64,000 nt of DNA. Origin: a virus (lineage: Duplodnaviria; Caudoviricetes). The position numbers and the translations under genes are program-made. This document shows, piece by piece, positions 3,007 through 46,380 of the stretch (position 1 is the stretch's first letter; every line of letters begins with the position of its first letter). A model generated the notes under the pieces. That model was given only the letters and a program-made list of their open reading frames with translations, was not told where the DNA came from and did no database searches. The stretch is taken from the IMG/VR virus record IMGVR_UViG_3300034161_000008, positions 32,001-96,000 of that record; one strand, given 5' to 3'.

Positions 3007-5112
3007 ATGACAAGTCCCCTGAATGCTACCCCACAATCGATTCTGCTCGGTATTGATGACCAGAGTACGGTTGCGTTGGTGGCGGAAGCCGAACAGCTTC
3101 CTACGCACTTGCCGAAACTCTACTTCTACGCCAAGAAAGGTCCTACTGAGCCTCAATTGGTCGTGGGTAACAGCCGTTCCATCATGTACGGGGTCGACTC
3201 CTTTGACCTGCGTAAGCCCTGGGCTAACCACGCCACGGTGCTGGCCAACCTGATCAATGCTCAGGGTAACGCCGGTATGTACGAGCGCGTCAAACCAGCA
3301 GACGCTGGCCCGAACGCCTCGATCCGCGTATCGATCGACGTACTGCCTATGGCCGTACCGTTGTATCAGCGCAACTCCGACGGTTCGATCAAGGTCGATG
3401 CACAGAACAACCCAGTGCCTATGGCCGACGGTTCGACTACCACCGGTTATAAGGTCAAGTTCATCGGCGAGCCGATCGAATACCTGCCGCCTGAAGAAGA
3501 AGGTGGTGAGGCAATCTCCACTTACGGCCTCGGCGAAGAAGGTGCTGGCGACCAGGTCGACGAGCAATCGCAGACCACTTCCGTCCGCTACCCGCTGTTC
3601 GATACCGAGACTCCGGACTTCGGTGCCGACGGCAACCTGCGCGGTATCCGCCTGTGGGCTCCGACTACCAAGTCGAGCAACCCGATCGACCCTACCCTGC
3701 TGACGCAGAACAAGGTCTATCCGCTGCGTATGTCCTGCGTTCTGAAAGACAGCGCTGAGTCGACTCCGACTACCAAACCAACCACCGCTGCTGAGCAGTA
3801 CGTGGACATCGGTTTTGTGCCGGGTGCGATCAACAAGCGTACCGACAAGATCACTTTCGTTGAGGAAGTGTTCGTCCAGTCGTACCAGAATCTGGAAGAC
3901 CCATCGGTTCCGCCTGTCTGGGGCCCGTTCGGCAAATTCCATCTGTACCAGGAAAACGTCGACAAGCTGGTCAAGCTGTTCTACGCAGCTGAAAAGCCGC
4001 ACAGCATCGGCTCGGTCGATTTCGACCAATCCGAAGGCGAAGAGTACCGCTTCAACTTCATCGGTGGCACCGACTCTCAGGGCGTTCCGTACCAGTCTTA
4101 CATCTTCTCGAAAGATGCTGGCTCCGTGCGTCTGACCGAGAACTCGACCATCTATGCTTCGGGCGGTTCCGACGGCACCATGAACGACGTCGAGTTCGCT
4201 AAACTGGTTTCTGCTTCTGTGAAGAAGTACGCAGACCCGGACAGCGAGTTCCAGAATACTGCGAAGTATCCTGAATCGATGATTTGGGACTCCGGCTACC
4301 CGCTGGAAACCAAGTACGACCTGATCAGCTTTATCGCCAACCGTAAGGACACCGGCGTAGGCCTGTGCACTCACACCGTCGGCGGTGCTGAACTGACTGC
4401 TTCGGAAGAGTCGGCTCTGGCTGTTGCTCTGCGCACCCGTCTGGGCATGTTCCCAGAATCCGAAACCTTCGGCACCTCCGTGGTCCGTGGTATCGTGGTG
4501 GGTCGTTCGGGCAAACTGATCAACTCGCAATACACTCAGCCCCTGCCGCTGATCCTCGAGATCGCCAGCAAGACTGCCCAGTACATGGGTGCCGGTAACG
4601 GCAAGTGGAAATCGGGTCAGTCGTTCGACAAGGCTCCTCGCAGCAAAGTCACGATGTTCCGCGACATCAACGTCACCTTCACTCCGTTCACCGTCCGCAA
4701 CAAGGACTGGGCAAACGGCTTGAACTGGGTTGAGTCGTTCGACCGTCGTAGCTTCAGCTTCCCTGCTCTGAAGACCGCTTACGACAACGATACGTCGGTG
4801 TTGACCAGCTTCTTCACCATGATGGGCTGCATCGAAGTCGAGAAAGTTGCTGACCGCTGCTGGCGTGAATTCCGCGGTGTCGACACTCTGTCGAACGCGC
4901 AGATCATCAAGCAGGTCAACCAGTTCTTCAACGACAACCTGGTGGGCCGTTTCGACAACCGCTTCACCATCAACCCTGAAGCCTACTTCACCGCGCAGGA
5001 TATCGCGCGCGGCTACAGCTACTCGGTTCGTGTGAAGGTTTACGCCAACAACATGAAGACTGTCCAGACAATGGTTCTGGAAGCTCATCGCATTGAGGAT
5101 CTCGCAGCATGA
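3007..5112 (+). CDS. Contractile tail sheath protein (phiKZ gp29-like)
   Basis: 701 aa; sheath-like C-terminus (GRFDNRFTINPEAYFT...YANNMKTV); strong codon bias; ATGA-coupled to a tube-sized gene. Confidence 0.9.
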   Translation: MTSPLNATPQSILLGIDDQSTVALVAEAEQLPTHLPKLYFYAKKGPTEPQLVVGNSRSIMYGVDSFDLRKPWANHATVLANLINAQGNAGMYERVKPADAGPNASIRVSIDVLPMAVPLYQRNSDGSIKVDAQNNPVPMADGSTTTGYKVKFIGEPIEYLPPEEEGGEAISTYGLGEEGAGDQVDEQSQTTSVRYPLFDTETPDFGADGNLRGIRLWAPTTKSSNPIDPTLLTQNKVYPLRMSCVLKDSAESTPTTKPTTAAEQYVDIGFVPGAINKRTDKITFVEEVFVQSYQNLEDPSVPPVWGPFGKFHLYQENVDKLVKLFYAAEKPHSIGSVDFDQSEGEEYRFNFIGGTDSQGVPYQSYIFSKDAGSVRLTENSTIYASGGSDGTMNDVEFAKLVSASVKKYADPDSEFQNTAKYPESMIWDSGYPLETKYDLISFIANRKDTGVGLCTHTVGGAELTASEESALAVALRTRLGMFPESETFGTSVVRGIVVGRSGKLINSQYTQPLPLILEIASKTAQYMGAGNGKWKSGQSFDKAPRSKVTMFRDINVTFTPFTVRNKDWANGLNWVESFDRRSFSFPALKTAYDNDTSVLTSFFTMMGCIEVEKVADRCWREFRGVDTLSNAQIIKQVNQFFNDNLVGRFDNRFTINPEAYFTAQDIARGYSYSVRVKVYANNMKTVQTMVLEAHRIEDLAA

Positions 5113-5975
5113 GCCGTATCCGCGACGCAATTCTCGCAGAGAACACGGCCTACCACGTTGGCAAGACCAATCCCATGATTGATCTCCAATACGGCGGGCA
5201 GCAGGGCTACGCGCCCGATCTCACCGAATGGGTAAGCAACCAAGCTTACATTGGCAAAAACCTGATCTGCCTGCTGGTCGAGGCCCCTAAGGGCTTCGGC
5301 TACTTGCCGGACGCCGACGCATGGGTTGGTACTCTCCGTGCGCTGGTCGAGCTGCACCCAATGTCCATCACTGGTCTGTCGGCCGGTCTGGAAGTGGAAG
5401 TAACCGAAAACGCCGCTGGCGGTGCCGGTGAAATGCAGCAAGACTTCACTGACGTGAAACGTGCTCGTTCCAACCCAGTTTTCCGCTGGAACGAGAAATA
5501 CGGCATGCCGGTGCAGACCTTCCTGCAAGGTTGGATCACCTACCTGATGATGGACCCGGCTTCCAAGTACCCGAACGTTGCGACCTTGAGTGGTAGCAAA
5601 CCTACGGACTTGCTGGCCGACCAGTACGCAGCCACGATGATCTTCATCGAGCCAGATCCGACCCACACCAAAGTGGTTAAGGCCTGGCTGTGCACCAACA
5701 TGTGGCCAATGAACACGGGCGAGATGATCGGCCGTCGTGAACTGGCTGCTGCTGGTGAACCGACTACTTACGACATTCCTTTCACTGCGCTGACTCAGTT
5801 CGGCGCTGGTGTGGATCTGCTCGCTGAGAAGTTGCTGGCTGGTATCAACATCACCGGTGCAAACCCTTACCAGCGTCCTGCTTTCTTGGACGCCATCGAC
5901 GCCGACGTTCTGGCAGCCCGCAAGGGTTACGAGAGCCAAGTCGAAGAGCTGGGTTCGCAAGCAATCCGCGTATAG
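5109..5975 (+). CDS. Tail tube protein (phiKZ gp30-like)
   Basis: 288 aa directly after the sheath; PMIDLQYGGQQGY and FIEPDPT motifs match the recalled family. Confidence 0.85.
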   Translation: MSRIRDAILAENTAYHVGKTNPMIDLQYGGQQGYAPDLTEWVSNQAYIGKNLICLLVEAPKGFGYLPDADAWVGTLRALVELHPMSITGLSAGLEVEVTENAAGGAGEMQQDFTDVKRARSNPVFRWNEKYGMPVQTFLQGWITYLMMDPASKYPNVATLSGSKPTDLLADQYAATMIFIEPDPTHTKVVKAWLCTNMWPMNTGEMIGRRELAAAGEPTTYDIPFTALTQFGAGVDLLAEKLLAGINITGANPYQRPAFLDAIDADVLAARKGYESQVEELGSQAIRV

Positions 5976-6017
5976 CGGCATAAGGAGAGCAGCCTTTCGG
6001 GGCTGCTCTCTATGCTG
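5976..6017. terminator. CATA-hairpin-TATG element between convergent genes
   Basis: CGGCATA-AG-GAGAGCAGCC-TTTCGG-GGCTGCTCTC-TATGCTG; no U-tract on either strand. Confidence 0.7.
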
Positions 6018-6021
6018 TAAA

Positions 6022-6432
6022 TTAACGAATGTCGGGGTTGTTGGCACGATCCAGATCAACCATGCGTTGGGTGCGCGCTTGCAGTGCAGCCATCGAATGT
6101 TGTAGATGGTACAGAGCTTCTGCGTTCTCGGCCGAAGCGAACGGACCGGCTTGGAAGTCAGTCAGGCGATCTATACAGACAGCCATCAGAGATTCCATGG
6201 TAATGCCGACCAGATCTTTATCTGGCATTGGGCGTTCATTCTGGAAGATCAACGACAGCTTGGAGAACGACGCACGATAGCCGTCGTCGTCAGCGTTGGC
6301 GGTGTTGAGAGCAGTGTCAAAGCCAGTGATCTGGTAGTGAGTGTGACCACCACCTGCACCTACGACACCCACAGCTTTCACAACAACGTTGGTTTCAGCG
6401 CCTTCAACGTGGTGTACGGTAACTTCTTTCAT
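6022..6432 (-). CDS. tad1: Tad1-like (Thoeris anti-defence 1) nucleotide-signal sponge, 136 aa
   Basis: GAGGGHTHYQI...IFQN...GITMESLMAVCIDRLTDFQAGPFASAENAEAL matches the recalled Tad1 pattern (GxGG..H.Y, FQ, DRL..FQAGPF...EN..AL). AAGGA SD precedes ATG at 6432. Confidence 0.75.
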   Translation of the reverse strand: MKEVTVHHVEGAETNVVVKAVGVVGAGGGHTHYQITGFDTALNTANADDDGYRASFSKLSLIFQNERPMPDKDLVGITMESLMAVCIDRLTDFQAGPFASAENAEALYHLQHSMAALQARTQRMVDLDRANNPDIR

Positions 6433-6477
6433 GAGACTTCCTTTCGTGATTAATCGGAGTACACAAAATCCACCAAA

Positions 6478-6557
6478 CAAATAAAAAAAAAAGAGTGTCG
6501 GGTAGTCCCGGCTTTTATGCCGTCATAGACGGAAGACCGAAGTCTCCCGCCTACTCA
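6478..6557 (-). terminator. Tandem double hairpin ending in a long U-tract
   Basis: Minus strand: GCGGGAGAC-TTCG-GTCTTCCGTC-TATG-ACGG-CATA-AAAGCCGGGA-CTA-CCCGACAC-TC-T10. Confidence 0.7.
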
Positions 6558-6560
6558 GGT

Positions 6561-7289
6561 TTAGCTTTCGTGCGGTGACAGACCGTTAGGACTGTTGTAG
6601 AAGCTGGCGCGACTGGGCAAGAACCGGTAGAACATGTTCTTCTTCTCAACTTGAACCAAACGATTCATGATTGAGGAGTGTATCGGCATCAAGCTTTCGG
6701 CAGCCTGCTGCGAACTGGAGTACAGAAACAATGCCCAGTGGAAAGCATCAACAACGGCTGTGGTCAAACACATCCGAGGCGAACTACCCAAGCCATCTTC
6801 GTAGTCGGTAATTGCCGAAGACATATCGCCAACAGCCGAGATGAAGTGAATCAAGCCATCGAACTGGCTAGGCATCTTTCCAACAGCCATATTGCACTTG
6901 TGGCGGTACATGTACGAAGCCATGTTGCCAACGTTGACATTGTCGGAATGTTCTTTCAGTGTCTCAGCTACGTAACCACCCAGGTTGATTTGCAGGGTGT
7001 TGGCCATTGACATCGCAATGATTACAGCATCAACAACCTTGCGACGAAACTCACGCAGGTTGTCAGCCTGATGCAGCTCCATCAGATTACCGCCGTACTT
7101 GCCCATGTGCAACACGAAGTGCGTCAGCTTCTGAGCCAGTGGCAAGGTGTGGATCTCGTGGTGGAAGTAACGGTCGTGTTGTTCTTGCAACCACTGGACT
7201 TCAAGAACTTTATCAGCGAAGAACTGATTCATTCGTGGAGCCGGAGGAGCAACTTGAATACCACAACCATCAGATGAATCGAGGATCAT
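6561..7289 (-). CDS. All-alpha hypothetical protein, possibly a divergent tandem MazG/NTP-pyrophosphatase fold
   Basis: 242 aa, ATGA-coupled to the upstream HTH gene; helical motif QxxHDxxFHxEIxxLP...HFVLHMGKY...VVDAVIIAMSMANTL. Fold call is recalled resemblance only. Confidence 0.4.
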   Translation of the reverse strand: MILDSSDGCGIQVAPPAPRMNQFFADKVLEVQWLQEQHDRYFHHEIHTLPLAQKLTHFVLHMGKYGGNLMELHQADNLREFRRKVVDAVIIAMSMANTLQINLGGYVAETLKEHSDNVNVGNMASYMYRHKCNMAVGKMPSQFDGLIHFISAVGDMSSAITDYEDGLGSSPRMCLTTAVVDAFHWALFLYSSSQQAAESLMPIHSSIMNRLVQVEKKNMFYRFLPSRASFYNSPNGLSPHES

Positions 7290-7555
7290 TCTTCTAACTC
7301 CATCTTTACTTTCTTAACGATTTGGGATACCCGGCCAGGAGACAGCTTAAAGACACTAGCGACGTCTTTAGCTTTAGATCCACCCAGTACGGCGAAGTAG
7401 ATAAACTTGTCGCGAAGTTTTACAACCTCCTCCTGCAATTCTTTAAGCTGCCCAACTTCCGTGTCGGTAAACAATCGTCCTTCATCAAGGCTAGCTTTAG
7501 CTTTATCCAAAGCTCTGCTTGCGTGTTCCAGATGACTCAATGCCAATCTTCCCAT
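7286..7555 (-). CDS. Small helix-turn-helix protein (sigma region 4-like C-terminus)
   Basis: 89 aa; SKAKDVASVFKLSPGRVSQIVKK is an HTH pattern; GGAG SD present. Confidence 0.65.
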   Translation of the reverse strand: MGRLALSHLEHASRALDKAKASLDEGRLFTDTEVGQLKELQEEVVKLRDKFIYFAVLGGSKAKDVASVFKLSPGRVSQIVKKVKMELEE

Positions 7556-7572
7556 ACGAAGTCTCCAGAGAT

Positions 7573-7614
7573 AAAAAAAATAGTAACCTAAGATGGGGAG
7601 TTCTTAGGTTACTA
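7573..7614 (-). terminator. Intrinsic terminator: perfect 12-bp inverted repeat plus U-tract
   Basis: TAGTAACCTAAG-N10-CTTAGGTTACTA with a plus-strand A8 run (U-tract on minus). Confidence 0.7.
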
Positions 7615-7660
7615 CGCTAACAGGCATACGCTGAAAGAAGGAGTGAACAGCGCAGCAGGA

Positions 7661-8023
7661 CTAGCCAAGTGCCCCCAAGTTGAGGTTAACGAAACCGGCG
7701 ACCACACCCGCGACTTCTGATTGAGTCGGTGGGCGGAATCGATCGAATCCTTGAAACTGTTTGTAGCGTAATGCAAAGACTTCACTAAGAGGAAAGCCTC
7801 CGTAGAAATAAGGTTCAGGCTCGTGTGCTTTCCGATGCTTGTAGAAAGGAGAGTACGTTGAGAAACGGTTCCAGCAAGTTGATGCGTCCAAACGGTCTGC
7901 CCATCCTGAGAGCCATTCGTCTATTGCTTTAAGGGGGTCCTGTGTCTCTTGTGGAGAGAAGTGAAGCGGGAATTCCATCCGCGCTATTGGTTTCTCCAGC
8001 AGTTCCTTTATTGTGGCCATCAT
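7661..8023 (-). CDS. Hypothetical protein (about 120 aa); start uncertain
   Basis: ORF MMATIKELLEKP...; overlaps the 3' end of the DUF488 ORF by about 95 nt. Confidence 0.5.
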   Translation of the reverse strand: MMATIKELLEKPIARMEFPLHFSPQETQDPLKAIDEWLSGWADRLDASTCWNRFSTYSPFYKHRKAHEPEPYFYGGFPLSEVFALRYKQFQGFDRFRPPTQSEVAGVVAGFVNLNLGALG

Positions 8024-8423
8024 CCGATACCCTAGGAAAGTGTTGGGTGTTCGCTTTTGTGATCTCTCCACAAAGCGTAACTTCAATACCGTGTGCTTCC
8101 AGATATTTCTTCACCACCATTATCAGCAGGTGACGGTGACAGAATTGTCCGGCTCGACAGTAACAGGCGAGTGCAACAGTATCATACCCTTTAAGTTCCT
8201 CCCAACGCCCAGGATTCAATTCCTGAGATTCAGCCATCTTGGCTAGGTAGAGTCTGGTGTATTCCTCCTCAGACATCTTGCCATTTTTGTAATCCCACAC
8301 CTTGCTCATGTCCGGAGCGAAGGCGGCGATCCCACTCTTAGCGGTCGTATCGAGCATCTCAATGCCTAACGACTTACAGAGCCTCCATTGCGCGATCTGA
8401 ACGGTGTAGATCCTAATTGCCAC
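7929..8423 (-). CDS. DUF488-family protein (jumbo-phage type)
   Basis: DTTAKSG..FAP...YK.G..SEEEYT..YL and ALACYC..GQFCHRHLL motifs; GTG at 8423 preceded by AAGGAG. Confidence 0.75.
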   Translation of the reverse strand: MAIRIYTVQIAQWRLCKSLGIEMLDTTAKSGIAAFAPDMSKVWDYKNGKMSEEEYTRLYLAKMAESQELNPGRWEELKGYDTVALACYCRAGQFCHRHLLIMVVKKYLEAHGIEVTLCGEITKANTQHFPRVSDDGHNKGTAGETNSADGIPASLLSTRDTGPP

Positions 8424-8582
8424 GCGATGTACTCCTTGCAGCATAAAACGCTGCCAAGCCCCTTGCAGGACCCGGCAGCGTACACAGTGCTCACAACAGC
8501 TCCGTTGAATGTCAATGTTTTCGGCGTACCGAAGTACCCGATGGGCTGACCAGCTCCTGCTCTGTTGCTCGCGAGTGTTTAG

Positions 8583-8762
8583 TTAGACATGGCTGAGGGA
8601 CATTTCAACTTCGTGCTTCCACCACTTCTGCTCACCGTCACGCACAATCGGTTGTACAGAACGAGTGGAAGCCATCATGCTGACGAATACCTCAGCGCCG
8701 CGTTCTTCCAGTGCGGCCAGGACCATGTCCTTGAGCTGGTTGATGTCGATCAACTCGCCCAT
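8583..8762 (-). CDS. Small hypothetical protein (59 aa), below the ORF-track cutoff
   Basis: Hand translation MGELIDINQLKDMVLAALEERGAEVFVSMMASTRSVQPIVRDGEQKWWKHEVEMSLSHV*; starts 2 nt after the upstream stop. Confidence 0.55.
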   Translation of the reverse strand: MGELIDINQLKDMVLAALEERGAEVFVSMMASTRSVQPIVRDGEQKWWKHEVEMSLSHV

Positions 8763-8764
8763 TG

Positions 8765-9271
8765 TTACTTGCCAGCCAGCGCTTCCAGCGCCAGTGCCGA
8801 GAGATAGGATTTGACTTTGGTCACTTCGCCACGGTTCTTGGTGCCGTAGATCTGGTGATCGATTTGAACCTGGCCCATCTTGGTGATGGTGCCTTTGGTT
8901 TGCTGATCCGGGAAAGTACGCTCGCGCTCGAAGTTAGCGCGGATGACGTCCTTGCCGATGGTCGGCAGTTGCAGGTTGATCTTTTGCAGCTCTTTGTCGG
9001 CGACGAACGCAGGAACGCCCAGCTCACCAGCAGCTTTACCCATGGCCGGGTACAGGACGCTGTGGAACTTGGCGAAGCCTTCAGCTTGCTCGATGGTCAG
9101 GCCTTCGGGCAGCAGGGAAGCGTACAGCGCAGCGCTGGCAACGTGGTCGCCGCCTTCGATCTTGCCATCGGCCTTGACACCAGCGACGATGCGCTCGGAC
9201 AGTGCGGCAACTTCTGGATTGATCTTGGCCAGGAGGTCAGCTGCTTTCTCAACGGTATTTACTGCGGACAT
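8765..9271 (-). CDS. Hypothetical protein with highly-expressed-type codon usage
   Basis: 168 aa; AAGGAAG SD; strong C/T third-position bias as in the sheath gene. Confidence 0.75.
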   Translation of the reverse strand: MSAVNTVEKAADLLAKINPEVAALSERIVAGVKADGKIEGGDHVASAALYASLLPEGLTIEQAEGFAKFHSVLYPAMGKAAGELGVPAFVADKELQKINLQLPTIGKDVIRANFERERTFPDQQTKGTITKMGQVQIDHQIYGTKNRGEVTKVKSYLSALALEALAGK

Positions 9272-9305
9272 GTGAATCTTCCTTCTTGCGGGTTTTTTGA
9301 GTGAG

Positions 9306-9629
9306 TTAGATTTTTGCTTTCTTCAAAGCGAAGGGCGAGATGAATCGCCCAGGTACTTCGGTACGTTCCAGCGTGTGTGCCTGATGGATCTTGTGGTTGC
9401 CCAAAAGGACGATCAGCGCACCACCGCGTTTGGTGTAAACGACTTCTTCCACAGTCGGATTAGGATGCGGAGGAGAGAGTTCACCAGCCAGATCACCGAT
9501 GGTAAGTTCTGCGACTTTTACCTTTTCGATGCGGGCTTGTTTTGCGAGTGCGACAACGGCTTCGAGATCGTAAAGGGCATCGTTCCAACGAAGCACTTGG
9601 CGACCCTGAGAGTTAATCCGCATGAGCAT
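9306..9629 (-). CDS. Hypothetical protein
   Basis: About 107-aa ORF from ATG at 9629 after AAGGA (alternative start 9623). Confidence 0.6.
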   Translation of the reverse strand: MLMRINSQGRQVLRWNDALYDLEAVVALAKQARIEKVKVAELTIGDLAGELSPPHPNPTVEEVVYTKRGGALIVLLGNHKIHQAHTLERTEVPGRFISPFALKKAKI

Positions 9630-9686
9630 TGTTTCCTTGTCGTTTTCTATACCAAGACGTAACACCGTTATTTTCTACTCGTGTTA

Positions 9687-9692
9687 GTAATA
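9687..9692 (-). promoter_or_regulatory. Candidate early promoter core TATTAC
   Basis: TATTAC in AT-rich context upstream of the 9.6-6.0 kb accessory cluster; matches the phiKZ early consensus; single short hit. Confidence 0.35.
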
Positions 9693-9716
9693 AGTGGCTG
9701 AGATTTATTTGATTGC

Positions 9717-9750
9717 GGCATAAGGGCAGCCCTAAGGCCGCCCCTATGTT
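9717..9750. terminator. CATA-hairpin-TATG element after the protease gene
   Basis: GGCATA-A-GGGCAGCC-CTAA-GGCCGCCC-C-TATGTT, abutting the protease stop codon. Confidence 0.6.
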
Positions 9751-10504
9751 ACCAGCGCAGGAACGCTGGACGTTCAACAGGCTTGTTGGACCAGCCCATC
9801 GAAGCGAACAACTCAGCACCACTGAGGATAACGGACTCTTGAGCGATGCCCGCAACCACACTTTGGCTCTGAGCGCGTTCGATATCGCCGCGAGTAAAGG
9901 TCTGATCGAACTGACCCTCCAGTGCAGGAGACATCCACTTCTCAGCCACCGACAACCCAGGCTCGTTCACGTAGTCCCACGTGACGACAGTCTTGAGGTG
10001 ACGATGTACAATCCCGCCCAGCCGGTGATCGTCTGTGAAGGCCCGGATAGAGAAACAGACGTTCTCGTTAGGGTTCTTCAACGAACGCTCCAGAGCAGCA
10101 CCGTGAGGGCCCGCAGGGAGGATATCGCCGATGATGGCGATGATCGGATTCCCTTTGGCGTCCTTGATGCTGTTGAAGTCCAGCTCCAGGTTCATGATGT
10201 GGTGGGAGACTTTGTCTTCCCAGATCGACATCACGCGGTTAGCGAACTCGTTGCTGGATTGACCCGGCAGCGGTTTCGGGTGGCCGTATTCCCCACGCAG
10301 TGCGCCCTTTGCACAACGACGCATCAGCTGGCTCGAATTCTCGAACAAAGCTTTTGCAGGCTCGTAAGCATAGAACTCACCAGCAGAGTTGAACATGTTC
10401 AGGGCACCGAGCACGACACGGTAGTAGCCTTGCTCGTTTTGCTTGAGGTTACCGACTTTGTTTATACCGGCCAAAGCCGTACAAACGAACTTAATGGAAT
10501 TCAT
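9749..10504 (-). CDS. Prohead maturation serine protease (phiKZ gp175 / T4 gp21-like)
   Basis: LRGEYGHP (His), VCFSIRA (Ser) and TWDYVNEPG motifs; ALE site near the C-terminus. Confidence 0.88.
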   Translation of the reverse strand: MNSIKFVCTALAGINKVGNLKQNEQGYYRVVLGALNMFNSAGEFYAYEPAKALFENSSQLMRRCAKGALRGEYGHPKPLPGQSSNEFANRVMSIWEDKVSHHIMNLELDFNSIKDAKGNPIIAIIGDILPAGPHGAALERSLKNPNENVCFSIRAFTDDHRLGGIVHRHLKTVVTWDYVNEPGLSVAEKWMSPALEGQFDQTFTRGDIERAQSQSVVAGIAQESVILSGAELFASMGWSNKPVERPAFLRW

Positions 10505-27787: not shown

Positions 27788-27832
27788 CGTCATAGGCCCC
27801 AGCCCCGAAAAGGGCTGGGGCTGTATGCTGTC
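27788..27832. terminator. CATA-hairpin-TATG element between convergent genes
   Basis: CGTCATA-G-GCCCCCAGCCC-CGAAAA-GGGCTGGGGGC-TG-TATGCTG. Confidence 0.7.
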
Positions 27833-31167: not shown

Positions 31168-31207
31168 GGTCATAGCGGGCAGGGTCTACCCCTGCCCGCT
31201 TATGCCG
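31168..31207. terminator. CATA-hairpin-TATG element between convergent genes
   Basis: GGTCATA-GCGGGCAGGG-TCTAC-CCCTGCCCGC-T-TATGCC. Confidence 0.7.
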
Positions 31208-46339: not shown

Positions 46340-46380
46340 GGCATAGAGCCCCAGCCCTAAAAAGGCTGGGGCTTATGACG
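46340..46380. terminator. CATA-hairpin-TATG element between convergent genes
   Basis: GGCATA-GA-GCCCCAGCC-CTAAAAA-GGCTGGGGC-T-TATGAC. Confidence 0.7.

Follow-up and report, generated by a model that had tools for sequence, protein, structure and literature searches.

Only one anti-defence protein, Tad1, has so far been described for jumbo phages (PMC13282480), and in these it is an injected capsid protein. The phiKZ protein gp184 is a 230-amino-acid (aa) inner-capsid protein; the head protease frees its C-terminal Tad1 part, which is then injected (PMC11297242; bioRxiv 10.1101/2025.11.23.690004). In CbTad1, F82, N92, R109 and R113 are the pocket residues for glycocyclic ADP-ribose (gcADPR) and 2′,3′-cyclic GMP-AMP (2′,3′-cGAMP), and R90 and T97 are the cyclic-trinucleotide and hexamer residues (PMC10680739). 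Tad1 in chimalliviruses is already known. Here we analyse a gene cluster at positions 6022 to 9692 of a 64,000-nucleotide (nt) window, bases 32001 to 96000 of the 218,436-bp uncultivated virus record IMGVR_UViG_3300034161_000008, which has direct terminal repeats. The cluster ends in a short Tad1 homologue. Its genes are labelled A to H in transcription order, all lie on the minus strand, and positions are those of the window throughout.

We read the cluster as a hypervariable accessory site between the head-protease operon and the convergent tail sheath and tube operon. It would comprise four transcription units, with a free-standing Tad1 (H), a backbone of A, B, D and E, and cargo genes C, F and G. 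The probability that we assign to this reading is about 0.72. It draws on gene content, homology, folds, synteny and polymorphism, from which we infer ligand specificity, expression timing and any counter-defence role other than that of Tad1.

A free-standing Tad1 homologue

Gene H (6022 to 6432) encodes a short-form Tad1-family protein of 136 aa, a predicted sponge for gcADPR and cyclic dinucleotides. A phmmer search of the PDB with H matched CbTad1 (7UAV; E 3e-8, residues 29 to 141 against 12 to 115) and phiKZ gp184 (8Y6V_I; E 6.5e-7). A profile built from H and six of its close relatives retrieved Tad1 chains only, with gp184 at 2.9e-14, CbTad1 at 3e-13 and CmTad1 at 1e-8. A Tad1-like protein had been proposed at this locus in a first-pass annotation made from the sequence, and both searches uphold that proposal: judged by homology, H is a genuine Tad1 homologue.

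With the Tad1 sponges CbTad1 (7UAV/7UAW), CmTad1 (8KBB) and gp184 (8Y6V chain I), H shares about 110 residues of homology, covering a beta-sheet and two C-terminal helices. It keeps the FQAGPF...EN...R motif, in which F93, N103 and R120 align with CbTad1 F82, N92 and R109, and the Asn and Arg are invariant in the H family. The residues at the cyclic-trinucleotide and hexamer positions are not those of CbTad1: R90 and T97 correspond to Ala101 and Tyr108 in H, and none of the seven family members has an Arg equivalent to R90. H most likely binds the Thoeris signal gcADPR in the conserved pocket and perhaps also cyclic dinucleotides, but probably does not bind cyclic trinucleotides, which would make its predicted ligand range narrower.

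Like gp184, H is carried by a nucleus-forming-type jumbo phage. Unlike gp184, which is capsid bound, cleaved by the protease and injected, H aligns only to the C-terminal half of that protein (residues 112 to 218). Because the N-terminal capsid-targeting half is missing, H would be synthesised in the infected cell, as a free-standing cytoplasmic Tad1 made after infection rather than injected. There is no second Tad1 copy elsewhere in the genome, and all close relatives whose sequence extends over this position have H beside the tube gene. This uncultivated lineage of nucleus-forming phages carries a short, free-standing Tad1, the one gene of the slot recognisable as counter-defence, and the slot that it borders is remodelled between strains 96 to 98% identical.

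A hypervariable slot with a conserved backbone

The slot lies between the tail sheath and tube genes on its left (plus strand, 3007 to 5112 and 5109 to 5975, the latter matching PF23806 at E 1.5e-111) and a Peptidase_S80 head-maturation protease on its right (minus strand, 9749 to 10504; E 2.1e-73). The sheath/tube operon is convergent with the slot genes. Eight open reading frames (ORFs) of one orientation occupy 6022 to 9665, in agreement with the eight co-oriented small minus-strand genes first reported there. Gene starts were revised using ribosome-binding sites and homologues (A, ATG 9629; D, GTG 8423; E, ATG 8023; H, ATG 6432).

The locus was compared with a distant set of 37 syntenic IMG/VR contigs, in which the protease is 35 to 61% identical, and with a close set of roughly 12 loci, reached by way of E, F and G homologues. 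In all 37 distant contigs the gap between protease and tube genes measures 2.2 to 9.6 kb and its content is highly variable. By gene content, about 50 related jumbo-phage contigs have a hypervariable accessory slot at this position. B recurs in 25 of the 37 distant loci, D in 16 to 24 and A in 4 to 6; C, E, F, G and H were found in none of them even by family profiles, although ORF picking there was crude and genes may have been missed. Forty cargo ORFs scanned from the distant slots included dihydrofolate reductase (DHFR), ligase-like NAD-binding domains, AAA/BCS1 and SMC_N-type ATPases, a phiKZ internal head protein and an HTH_31 protein, and no known anti-defence family was among them.

Among the close relatives, A is present wherever its position is covered. 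F is the only gene missing from L052 and L053, which share A, B, D, E, G and Tad1. In L048 and L051, genes of 98 and 61 aa replace F and G, and C is missing; L049 has nothing between E and Tad1, and L050 has E, a G allele that is 51% identical, and Tad1. L058 and L059, as well as the more distant L055, L056 and L069, carry F and G. This pattern of presence and absence indicates that A, B, D, E and Tad1 make up the genus-level backbone and that cargo is placed at two points, one between B and D and the other between E and Tad1. C, F and G would then be cassette-like cargo swapped among close relatives.

Divergence is much faster in the slot proteins than in the structural proteins on either side. 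In L048, L051, L049, L055 and L056 the tube protein is 79 to 86% and the protease 80 to 85% identical, compared with 42 to 65% for A, 49 to 57% for B, 53 to 67% for D, 56 to 58% for E and 44 to 68% for H. Identity of G falls to 28% in L055 and L056. In L058 the tube protein is 100% and Tad1 82% identical, and in L050, where G is 51% identical, the part of the tube protein that the contig covers (residues 250 to 288) is identical.

The slot resembles the anti-defence clusters and "moron" slots of phages in its fixed site, in the gain and loss of cassettes among near-identical strains, in its faster divergence and in holding a known anti-defence gene. It differs from anti-defence hotspots in that B and D are conserved over long distances and that the cargo of relatives is functionally mixed and not recognisably anti-defence. 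Presence and absence at a fixed site hold for C, F and G and, at the family level, for E and H, but fail for B and D. Comparison across related phages, which the first-pass annotation had suggested as a check on its accessory island, thus agrees with it for C, F and G, which vary at a fixed site, and disagrees for the conserved B and D.

Hairpins, promoter-like motifs and predicted transcription units

The eight genes had been taken for a single operon bordered by two CATA/TATG hairpins, with a TATTAC motif at its 5′ end. The elements themselves are present. A bidirectional terminator hairpin of the form GCATA-stem-loop-stem-TATGC, with a perfect 10-bp stem and a CATA..TATG base, lies at 5979 to 6016 between the convergent tube gene and H. 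An imperfect hairpin (9719 to 9748) forms, together with TTATGCCG, a minus-strand terminator at 9710 to 9748 at the 3′ end of the protease operon. TATTAC occupies minus-strand positions 9687 to 9692 within the promoter-like motif ACTTATTAC (9687 to 9695), 58 nt 5′ of A. Neither the role of the hairpins as borders nor the single operon survived closer comparison: the same hairpin and TATGCYG module occurs genome-wide and serves as a generic terminator, and three terminators on the coding strand inside the cluster predict four units.

Of the 49 genomic copies of TATGC[CT]G, 31 fall in the intergenic 7%, and these almost always stand directly 3′ of a GC-rich hairpin. Of the intergenic copies, 27 lie within a few hundred nt (mostly 25 to 85 nt) 3′ of a co-oriented gene and 18 face a convergent gene at its 3′ end; because of this orientation, the hairpin with TATGCYG would be mainly a 3′-end or terminator module, and CATA..TATG its palindromic base at gene convergence. 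Most gene 3′ ends carry a long palindrome, CRGCATA-[variable GC stem-loop]-TATGCYG (e.g., 27796 to 27830, 31174 to 31207 and 46347 to 46380), with a constant outer GCATA/TATGC part and a variable inner stem. The constant outer part hints at sequence-specific recognition, by termination of a phage RNA polymerase or by RNA processing, rather than at a plain intrinsic terminator.

The same elements have another possible interpretation, in which the hairpins would be a terminator combined with a late promoter (TATG), as in phiKZ, and A and D would be late and perhaps virion-associated. A TATG motif lies at the start site of phiKZ late promoters (PMC7598289), the island sits between structural operons, and co-oriented genes start 16 to 130 nt (two of them further) past TATGCYG at 10 of the 31 intergenic sites, D among them at 16 nt. 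We consider this interpretation unlikely, since the 27 elements that follow a co-oriented gene are placed as terminators and a promoter at the 18 that face convergent 3′ ends would give antisense RNA only. In addition, H lacks the capsid-targeting half of gp184, and the A-B-C unit has ACWTATTAC, which is common to non-structural units. A terminator plus late promoter was our initial main reading of the hairpin and TATG and was dropped after the orientations of the 31 intergenic elements had been counted.

ACWTATTAC has nine copies in the genome against 1.15 expected, and eight are intergenic, 30 to 75 nt 5′ of minus-strand genes. It and TATGC[CT]G are both above chance and neither is specific to the island; further copies of ACWTATTAC precede units with PhuZ, an RlaP nucleotidyltransferase and thymidylate kinase. 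In jumbo phages that have RNA polymerases of their own, the early promoters contain short AT-rich motifs (PMC7598289); by analogy, ACWTATTAC most likely represents a non-late promoter class. A scan of the island for sigma-70-type promoters found none, with 2.6 expected by chance.

The three internal minus-strand terminators are retained in relatives. The first (8481 to 8433) consists of a hairpin and TTTATGCTG between C and D. The second (7615 to 7572), 3′ of E, is an intrinsic terminator with a 13-bp perfect stem and a T8 run. The third, 3′ of G, is composite (6483 to 6548): a UUCG hairpin (6548 to 6531) is followed by TATG, a second hairpin (6512 to 6497) and a T10 run (6492 to 6483). From these hairpins and T runs we predict four terminator-separated units. 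Unit 1, A-B-C, would be transcribed from behind ACTTATTAC, the motif shared with the PhuZ, RlaP and thymidylate kinase units; unit 2 would be the overlapping pair D-E, unit 3 the translationally coupled pair F-G, and unit 4 H alone, behind a conserved leader.

About 60 nt between the T run and the Tad1 start (6433 to 6492; L048:8975-9029; L050:1320-1381; ATTTGTTTGGTGGATTTTGTGTACTCC...AAGGAAGTCTC) are kept in relatives despite differing upstream cargo, and this conservation suggests that H has a promoter or leader of its own. In the spacer between G and H (6497 to 6548), two hairpins are linked as TATG-ACGG-CATA, and the equivalent in L048 is one hairpin followed by TATGCC. The second hairpin looks like an extra 26-nt insertion, which would fit cassette turnover at terminator elements.

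In four peat or wetland metatranscriptome runs, contigs span A-B(-C), D-E and a portion of G; the tube and sheath genes are covered as well. No contig from these runs covers H or F, which is not evidence on their expression.

Cargo genes F and G

Gene F (7286 to 7555) encodes an 89-aa helix-turn-helix (HTH) protein and is a polymorphic, gene-sized insertion. Residues 36 to 82 match Pfam Sigma70_r4 at 20.4 bits (E 3.8e-4), and matches to NCBIfam sigma families are weak. An HTH protein had been announced for the cluster, and F does show a weak HTH of the sigma-70 region 4 type, with a score that stays below the 24.1 cutoff of the family. Searched against 50,697 phage records by tblastn, neither F nor A gave a match. 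Homologues of F (70 to 98% identity) always lie directly upstream of a G homologue.

The relatives L052, L053 and L054, at 96 to 98% DNA identity, lack exactly 7290 to 7560, that is, gene F (compare L052:8400-8430). F is inserted precisely between the Shine-Dalgarno sequence of G and its ATG, and the F stop overlaps the G start (ATGA), by which the two genes are coupled. In these strains, the E terminator and a GGAG ribosome site run directly to the ATG of G; where F is present, F uses that site.

Gene G (6561 to 7289) encodes an all-alpha protein of 242 aa with the fold of the dimeric dUTPase/MazG superfamily, and is swappable cargo. Its AlphaFold2 (AF2) model has a predicted local distance difference test (pLDDT) score of 89.6 and, in VIA, superposes on the dimeric dUTPases 1W2Y (Z 11.7, 168 residues aligned), 2YAY (Z 10.0, 153 aligned, root mean square deviation [rmsd] 3.8) and 5MYD (Z 9.8, 143 of 160 aligned, rmsd 3.3), the next unrelated entry having a Z of 7.0. 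The first half of G matches MazG/HisE (1VMG, 5IE9) at a Z of about 6, and in the ESM Atlas G reaches a template-modelling (TM) score of 0.66 to a nucleoside triphosphate (NTP) pyrophosphohydrolase cluster. Foldseek against the PDB gave nothing at E ≤ 0.001.

At the sequence level, G belongs to an unnamed His-rich family. Among 1.8 billion representative proteins it has 328 homologues, no Pfam family being assigned to any of them, and longer homologues contain no informative fused domain. G itself matches none of the Pfam families MazG, dUTPase_2 and PRA-PH, one of 60 relatives is MazG-like at E 0.01, and the G-family profile reaches MazG 5IE9 in the PDB only at E 0.081. The earlier suggestion of a possible MazG-like protein thus holds for the fold and not for membership in the MazG sequence family. 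In a profile alignment, the helix with D87 aligns with the MazG "ExxD" helix, and of the acidic motifs only the ExxD Asp has a counterpart, D87. Family-wide invariant residues are Q35, H38, D39, H57, H61, K64, Y65, D87 and R210, the first seven of which stand in place of the acidic metal ligands of dimeric dUTPases and MazG. The chimallivirus subclade, G included, has also lost the second motif of the family, KAxESLDHxE, which is nearly invariant otherwise. By modelled fold, an unnamed His-rich family with a dimeric-dUTPase fold is hereby defined, comprising about 330 sequence clusters.

The dimeric dUTPases as top structural matches of G suggest another function for part of the slot, in which G, with F as a regulator-like partner, would be a deoxynucleoside triphosphate (dNTP)- or dUTP-type pyrophosphohydrolase for phage DNA metabolism, and D-E would act in nucleotide or RNA-end metabolism. 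Genomic context is in keeping with it. At L067:71-2335, the full-length G homologue P0007 (32% identity) is followed by dCTP-deaminase-like (PF22769) and 5-hydroxymethyldeoxyuridine (5-hmdU) DNA kinase-type (PF18723) genes, a neighbourhood that links the His-rich family to modified-nucleotide DNA pathways. Another homologue, P0012, a canonical family member in which KAxESLDHxE is kept, has a weak QueC-like gene nearby in two of its three contexts, and T4-like Acinetobacter phages have G homologues in small-gene regions near one record end. DHFR occupies the same slot in a distant relative, and thymidylate kinase stands behind the same promoter-like motif elsewhere in the genome. However, the second motif of the chimallivirus subclade carries the substitutions K158S, E161T, D164E, H165D and E167L, and the loss of these five nearly invariant residues makes a conserved catalytic role of G doubtful. 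Further, G is dispensable in the close relatives L048 and L049, and the exchange of its allele in L050 beside an identical stretch of tube protein fits conflict-driven turnover better than a housekeeping role. We regard a metabolic role as a serious alternative, though with odds well short of even.

It can also be proposed that the cassettes upstream of Tad1 (F with G, G alone, or the 98- and 61-aa genes) are new counter-defence modules, in which G, a remodelled protein of dimeric-dUTPase fold without half of the catalytic motifs of its family, would bind or cleave a nucleotide-derived immune signal and F would be its small HTH partner, gained by precise insertion before G. In this specific form we rate the proposal as unlikely.

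The overlapping genes D and E

Gene D (7929 to 8423) encodes a DUF488-N3a protein of 164 aa that passes PF22751, the active DUF488-N3 subclade, with 34.1 bits against a cutoff of 27 (E 3.7e-8), and so confirms the DUF488 protein named in the first-pass annotation. Its CxC...CHR cysteine/arginine motif is intact, and C87, C89, C95, H96 and R97 are invariant in 16 sequences. D was found in 289 phage records and the head protease in 272, with the host genera shared; because it is as widespread as the head protease, D is, by this distribution, near-core in chimalliviruses. PADLOC gave only noise-level matches for D.

From work on DUF4326 (PMC9503650) and a weak DUF4326 co-hit of D, we take the DUF488 domain of D to belong to the rhodanese-phosphatase superfamily. 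No experimentally defined substrate for a DUF488 protein was found in the literature. For the sister clade DUF4326, processing of phosphates on ADP-ribose derivatives has been predicted (PMC9503650); this prediction was made for DUF4326 and not for the clade of D. D differs from other DUF488 proteins in a clade-specific C-terminal tail that overlaps E.

Gene E (7661 to 8023) encodes 120 aa of no known family and is found only in a genus-level clade. It has five homologues at 58 to 99% identity, with 46 invariant columns. No match to E was found by tblastn in the 50,697 phage records, and a feature search of the ESM Atlas gave no usable match. The start of E overlaps the 3′ end of D by about 95 nt (7929 to 8023) in a different frame, as it does in every close relative. 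The D tail (GEITK..TQH.PRV) is conserved together with the E N terminus in close relatives, and because both are conserved in all of them, the overlap is, by this pattern of conservation, a genuine dual-coding stretch. A complex prediction for D and E, run without controls, scored 0.00 and counts neither for nor against binding.

Genes A, B and C

Gene A (9306 to 9629) encodes a small conserved domain of 107 aa of no known family, to which relatives add a basic Ser/Arg/Pro-rich tail. Gene B (8765 to 9271), the conserved backbone gene of the slot in 25 of the 37 syntenic distant relatives, encodes an alpha+beta protein of 168 aa whose AF2 model has a pLDDT of 89.3. Foldseek matched it weakly to HU chains (probability 0.66, E 0.18), with nothing in the PDB at E ≤ 0.001, and Atlas TM scores to Bac_DNA_binding clusters were 0.45 to 0.52. 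In VIA its best match was to pilins (Z 5.7), with no HU chain among the top rows, and a feature search of the ESM Atlas gave unnamed viral clusters only.

Gene C (8583 to 8762) encodes 59 aa of no known family and is polymorphic cargo between B and D. It is present in L049 (63% identity) and in L052 and L053 (75%) and absent from L048, L051, L055 and L056. A peat metatranscriptome contig (run X16, contig 13) joins 8579 to 8749, that is, it comes from a relative without C, and gives independent support for the polymorphism.

A, B, C and E have no Pfam family, B included, and no PADLOC match, and NCBIfam adds nothing; the earlier count of four family-less proteins is therefore correct. The further claim that these four are strong candidates for inhibitors of immunity is not, as A and B belong to the backbone, E is fixed in its clade and only C is cargo. 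The backbone genes A, B, D and E probably have housekeeping or nucleotide/ADP-ribose-related functions.

Anti-immunity operon or mixed accessory site

In its broadest form, the anti-immunity proposal holds that the entire stretch is a dedicated operon in which A to G inhibit nucleotide-signal defence (Thoeris, CBASS, Pycsar and type III CRISPR). The Tad1 homologue anchors the locus, the fold of G is that of a nucleotide pyrophosphatase, and DUF4326, a sister clade in the superfamily of D, has a predicted role in the phosphate chemistry of ADP-ribose derivatives (PMC9503650). Fast divergence of the slot proteins and the swapping of cargo are as for arms-race genes, and a review points out that small jumbo-phage ORFs may hide anti-defence genes (PMC13282480). 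Against this, the stretch is divided into four terminator-separated units; D is as widespread as the head protease and B is present in most distant relatives, unlike typical anti-defence cargo; the 40 scanned ORFs of the distant slots are mixed and include no known anti-defence family; and A, B, C and E lack any PADLOC or Pfam link. We judge a dedicated operon to be improbable. What stands of the anti-immunity island is Tad1 itself, the variable slot and the fast divergence; the near-core D, the backbone genes A and B and the mixed distant cargo do not fit it.

The accessory slot with mixed content, which we prefer, also has points that weigh against it. First, the label "accessory" for the whole slot does not fit D and B. 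Second, the fold match of B is weak, and A, C, D and E have no assigned function. Third, the Tad1 pocket is incomplete relative to CbTad1, as the position of R113 is Met124 in H, with Arg123 adjacent. H has no match to PF24729 (Acb2_Tad1_hairpin) even at E ≤ 1 and stays below every Pfam threshold; its relative in L048 scores 14.1 bits against the PF24729 cutoff of 27, and precomputed PF24729 matches of H relatives are mostly flagged "weak", those of L048, L051 and L058 being unflagged. Fourth, the promoter and terminator calls are predictions from sequence, and the metatranscriptome contigs give neither timing nor strand and may include DNA carry-over.

Guilt by association with Tad1 is weakened because B and D are conserved and the distant cargo is functionally mixed. 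It is nevertheless reasonable to treat C, F and G and the alternative cassettes as sensible, though not strong, counter-defence candidates. The natural variants yield a short, ordered list for defence screens (C, F, G and the 98- and 61-aa alternatives), and the variant series sets these apart from the backbone (A, B, D and E), whose genes have a lower chance of being inhibitors.

Genome setting

The genome encodes a PhuZ-type tubulin (G000:C1:15540-16535; L062:341-1336) that matches Tubulin at E 5.9e-9 and TubZ_C_2, in a unit preceded by ACWTATTAC. Because of this tubulin, the phage is, by gene content, a phiKZ-like (chimallivirus-type) jumbo phage. The tubulin also supports a nucleus-forming lifestyle and a non-late class for ACWTATTAC. 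An Rfam scan of the island gave a snoRNA at chance level (E 0.24) as its sole match. Against the 50,697 phage records, the DNA of the locus had no match by megablast, and blastn matched the tube gene only. The nearest cultured relatives, at about 50 to 55% protein identity, are Burkholderia phage FLC9 and Xanthomonas phage RTH11, both with the same layout, together with Ralstonia phages RP12 and RP31 and Xanthomonas phage LucasX.

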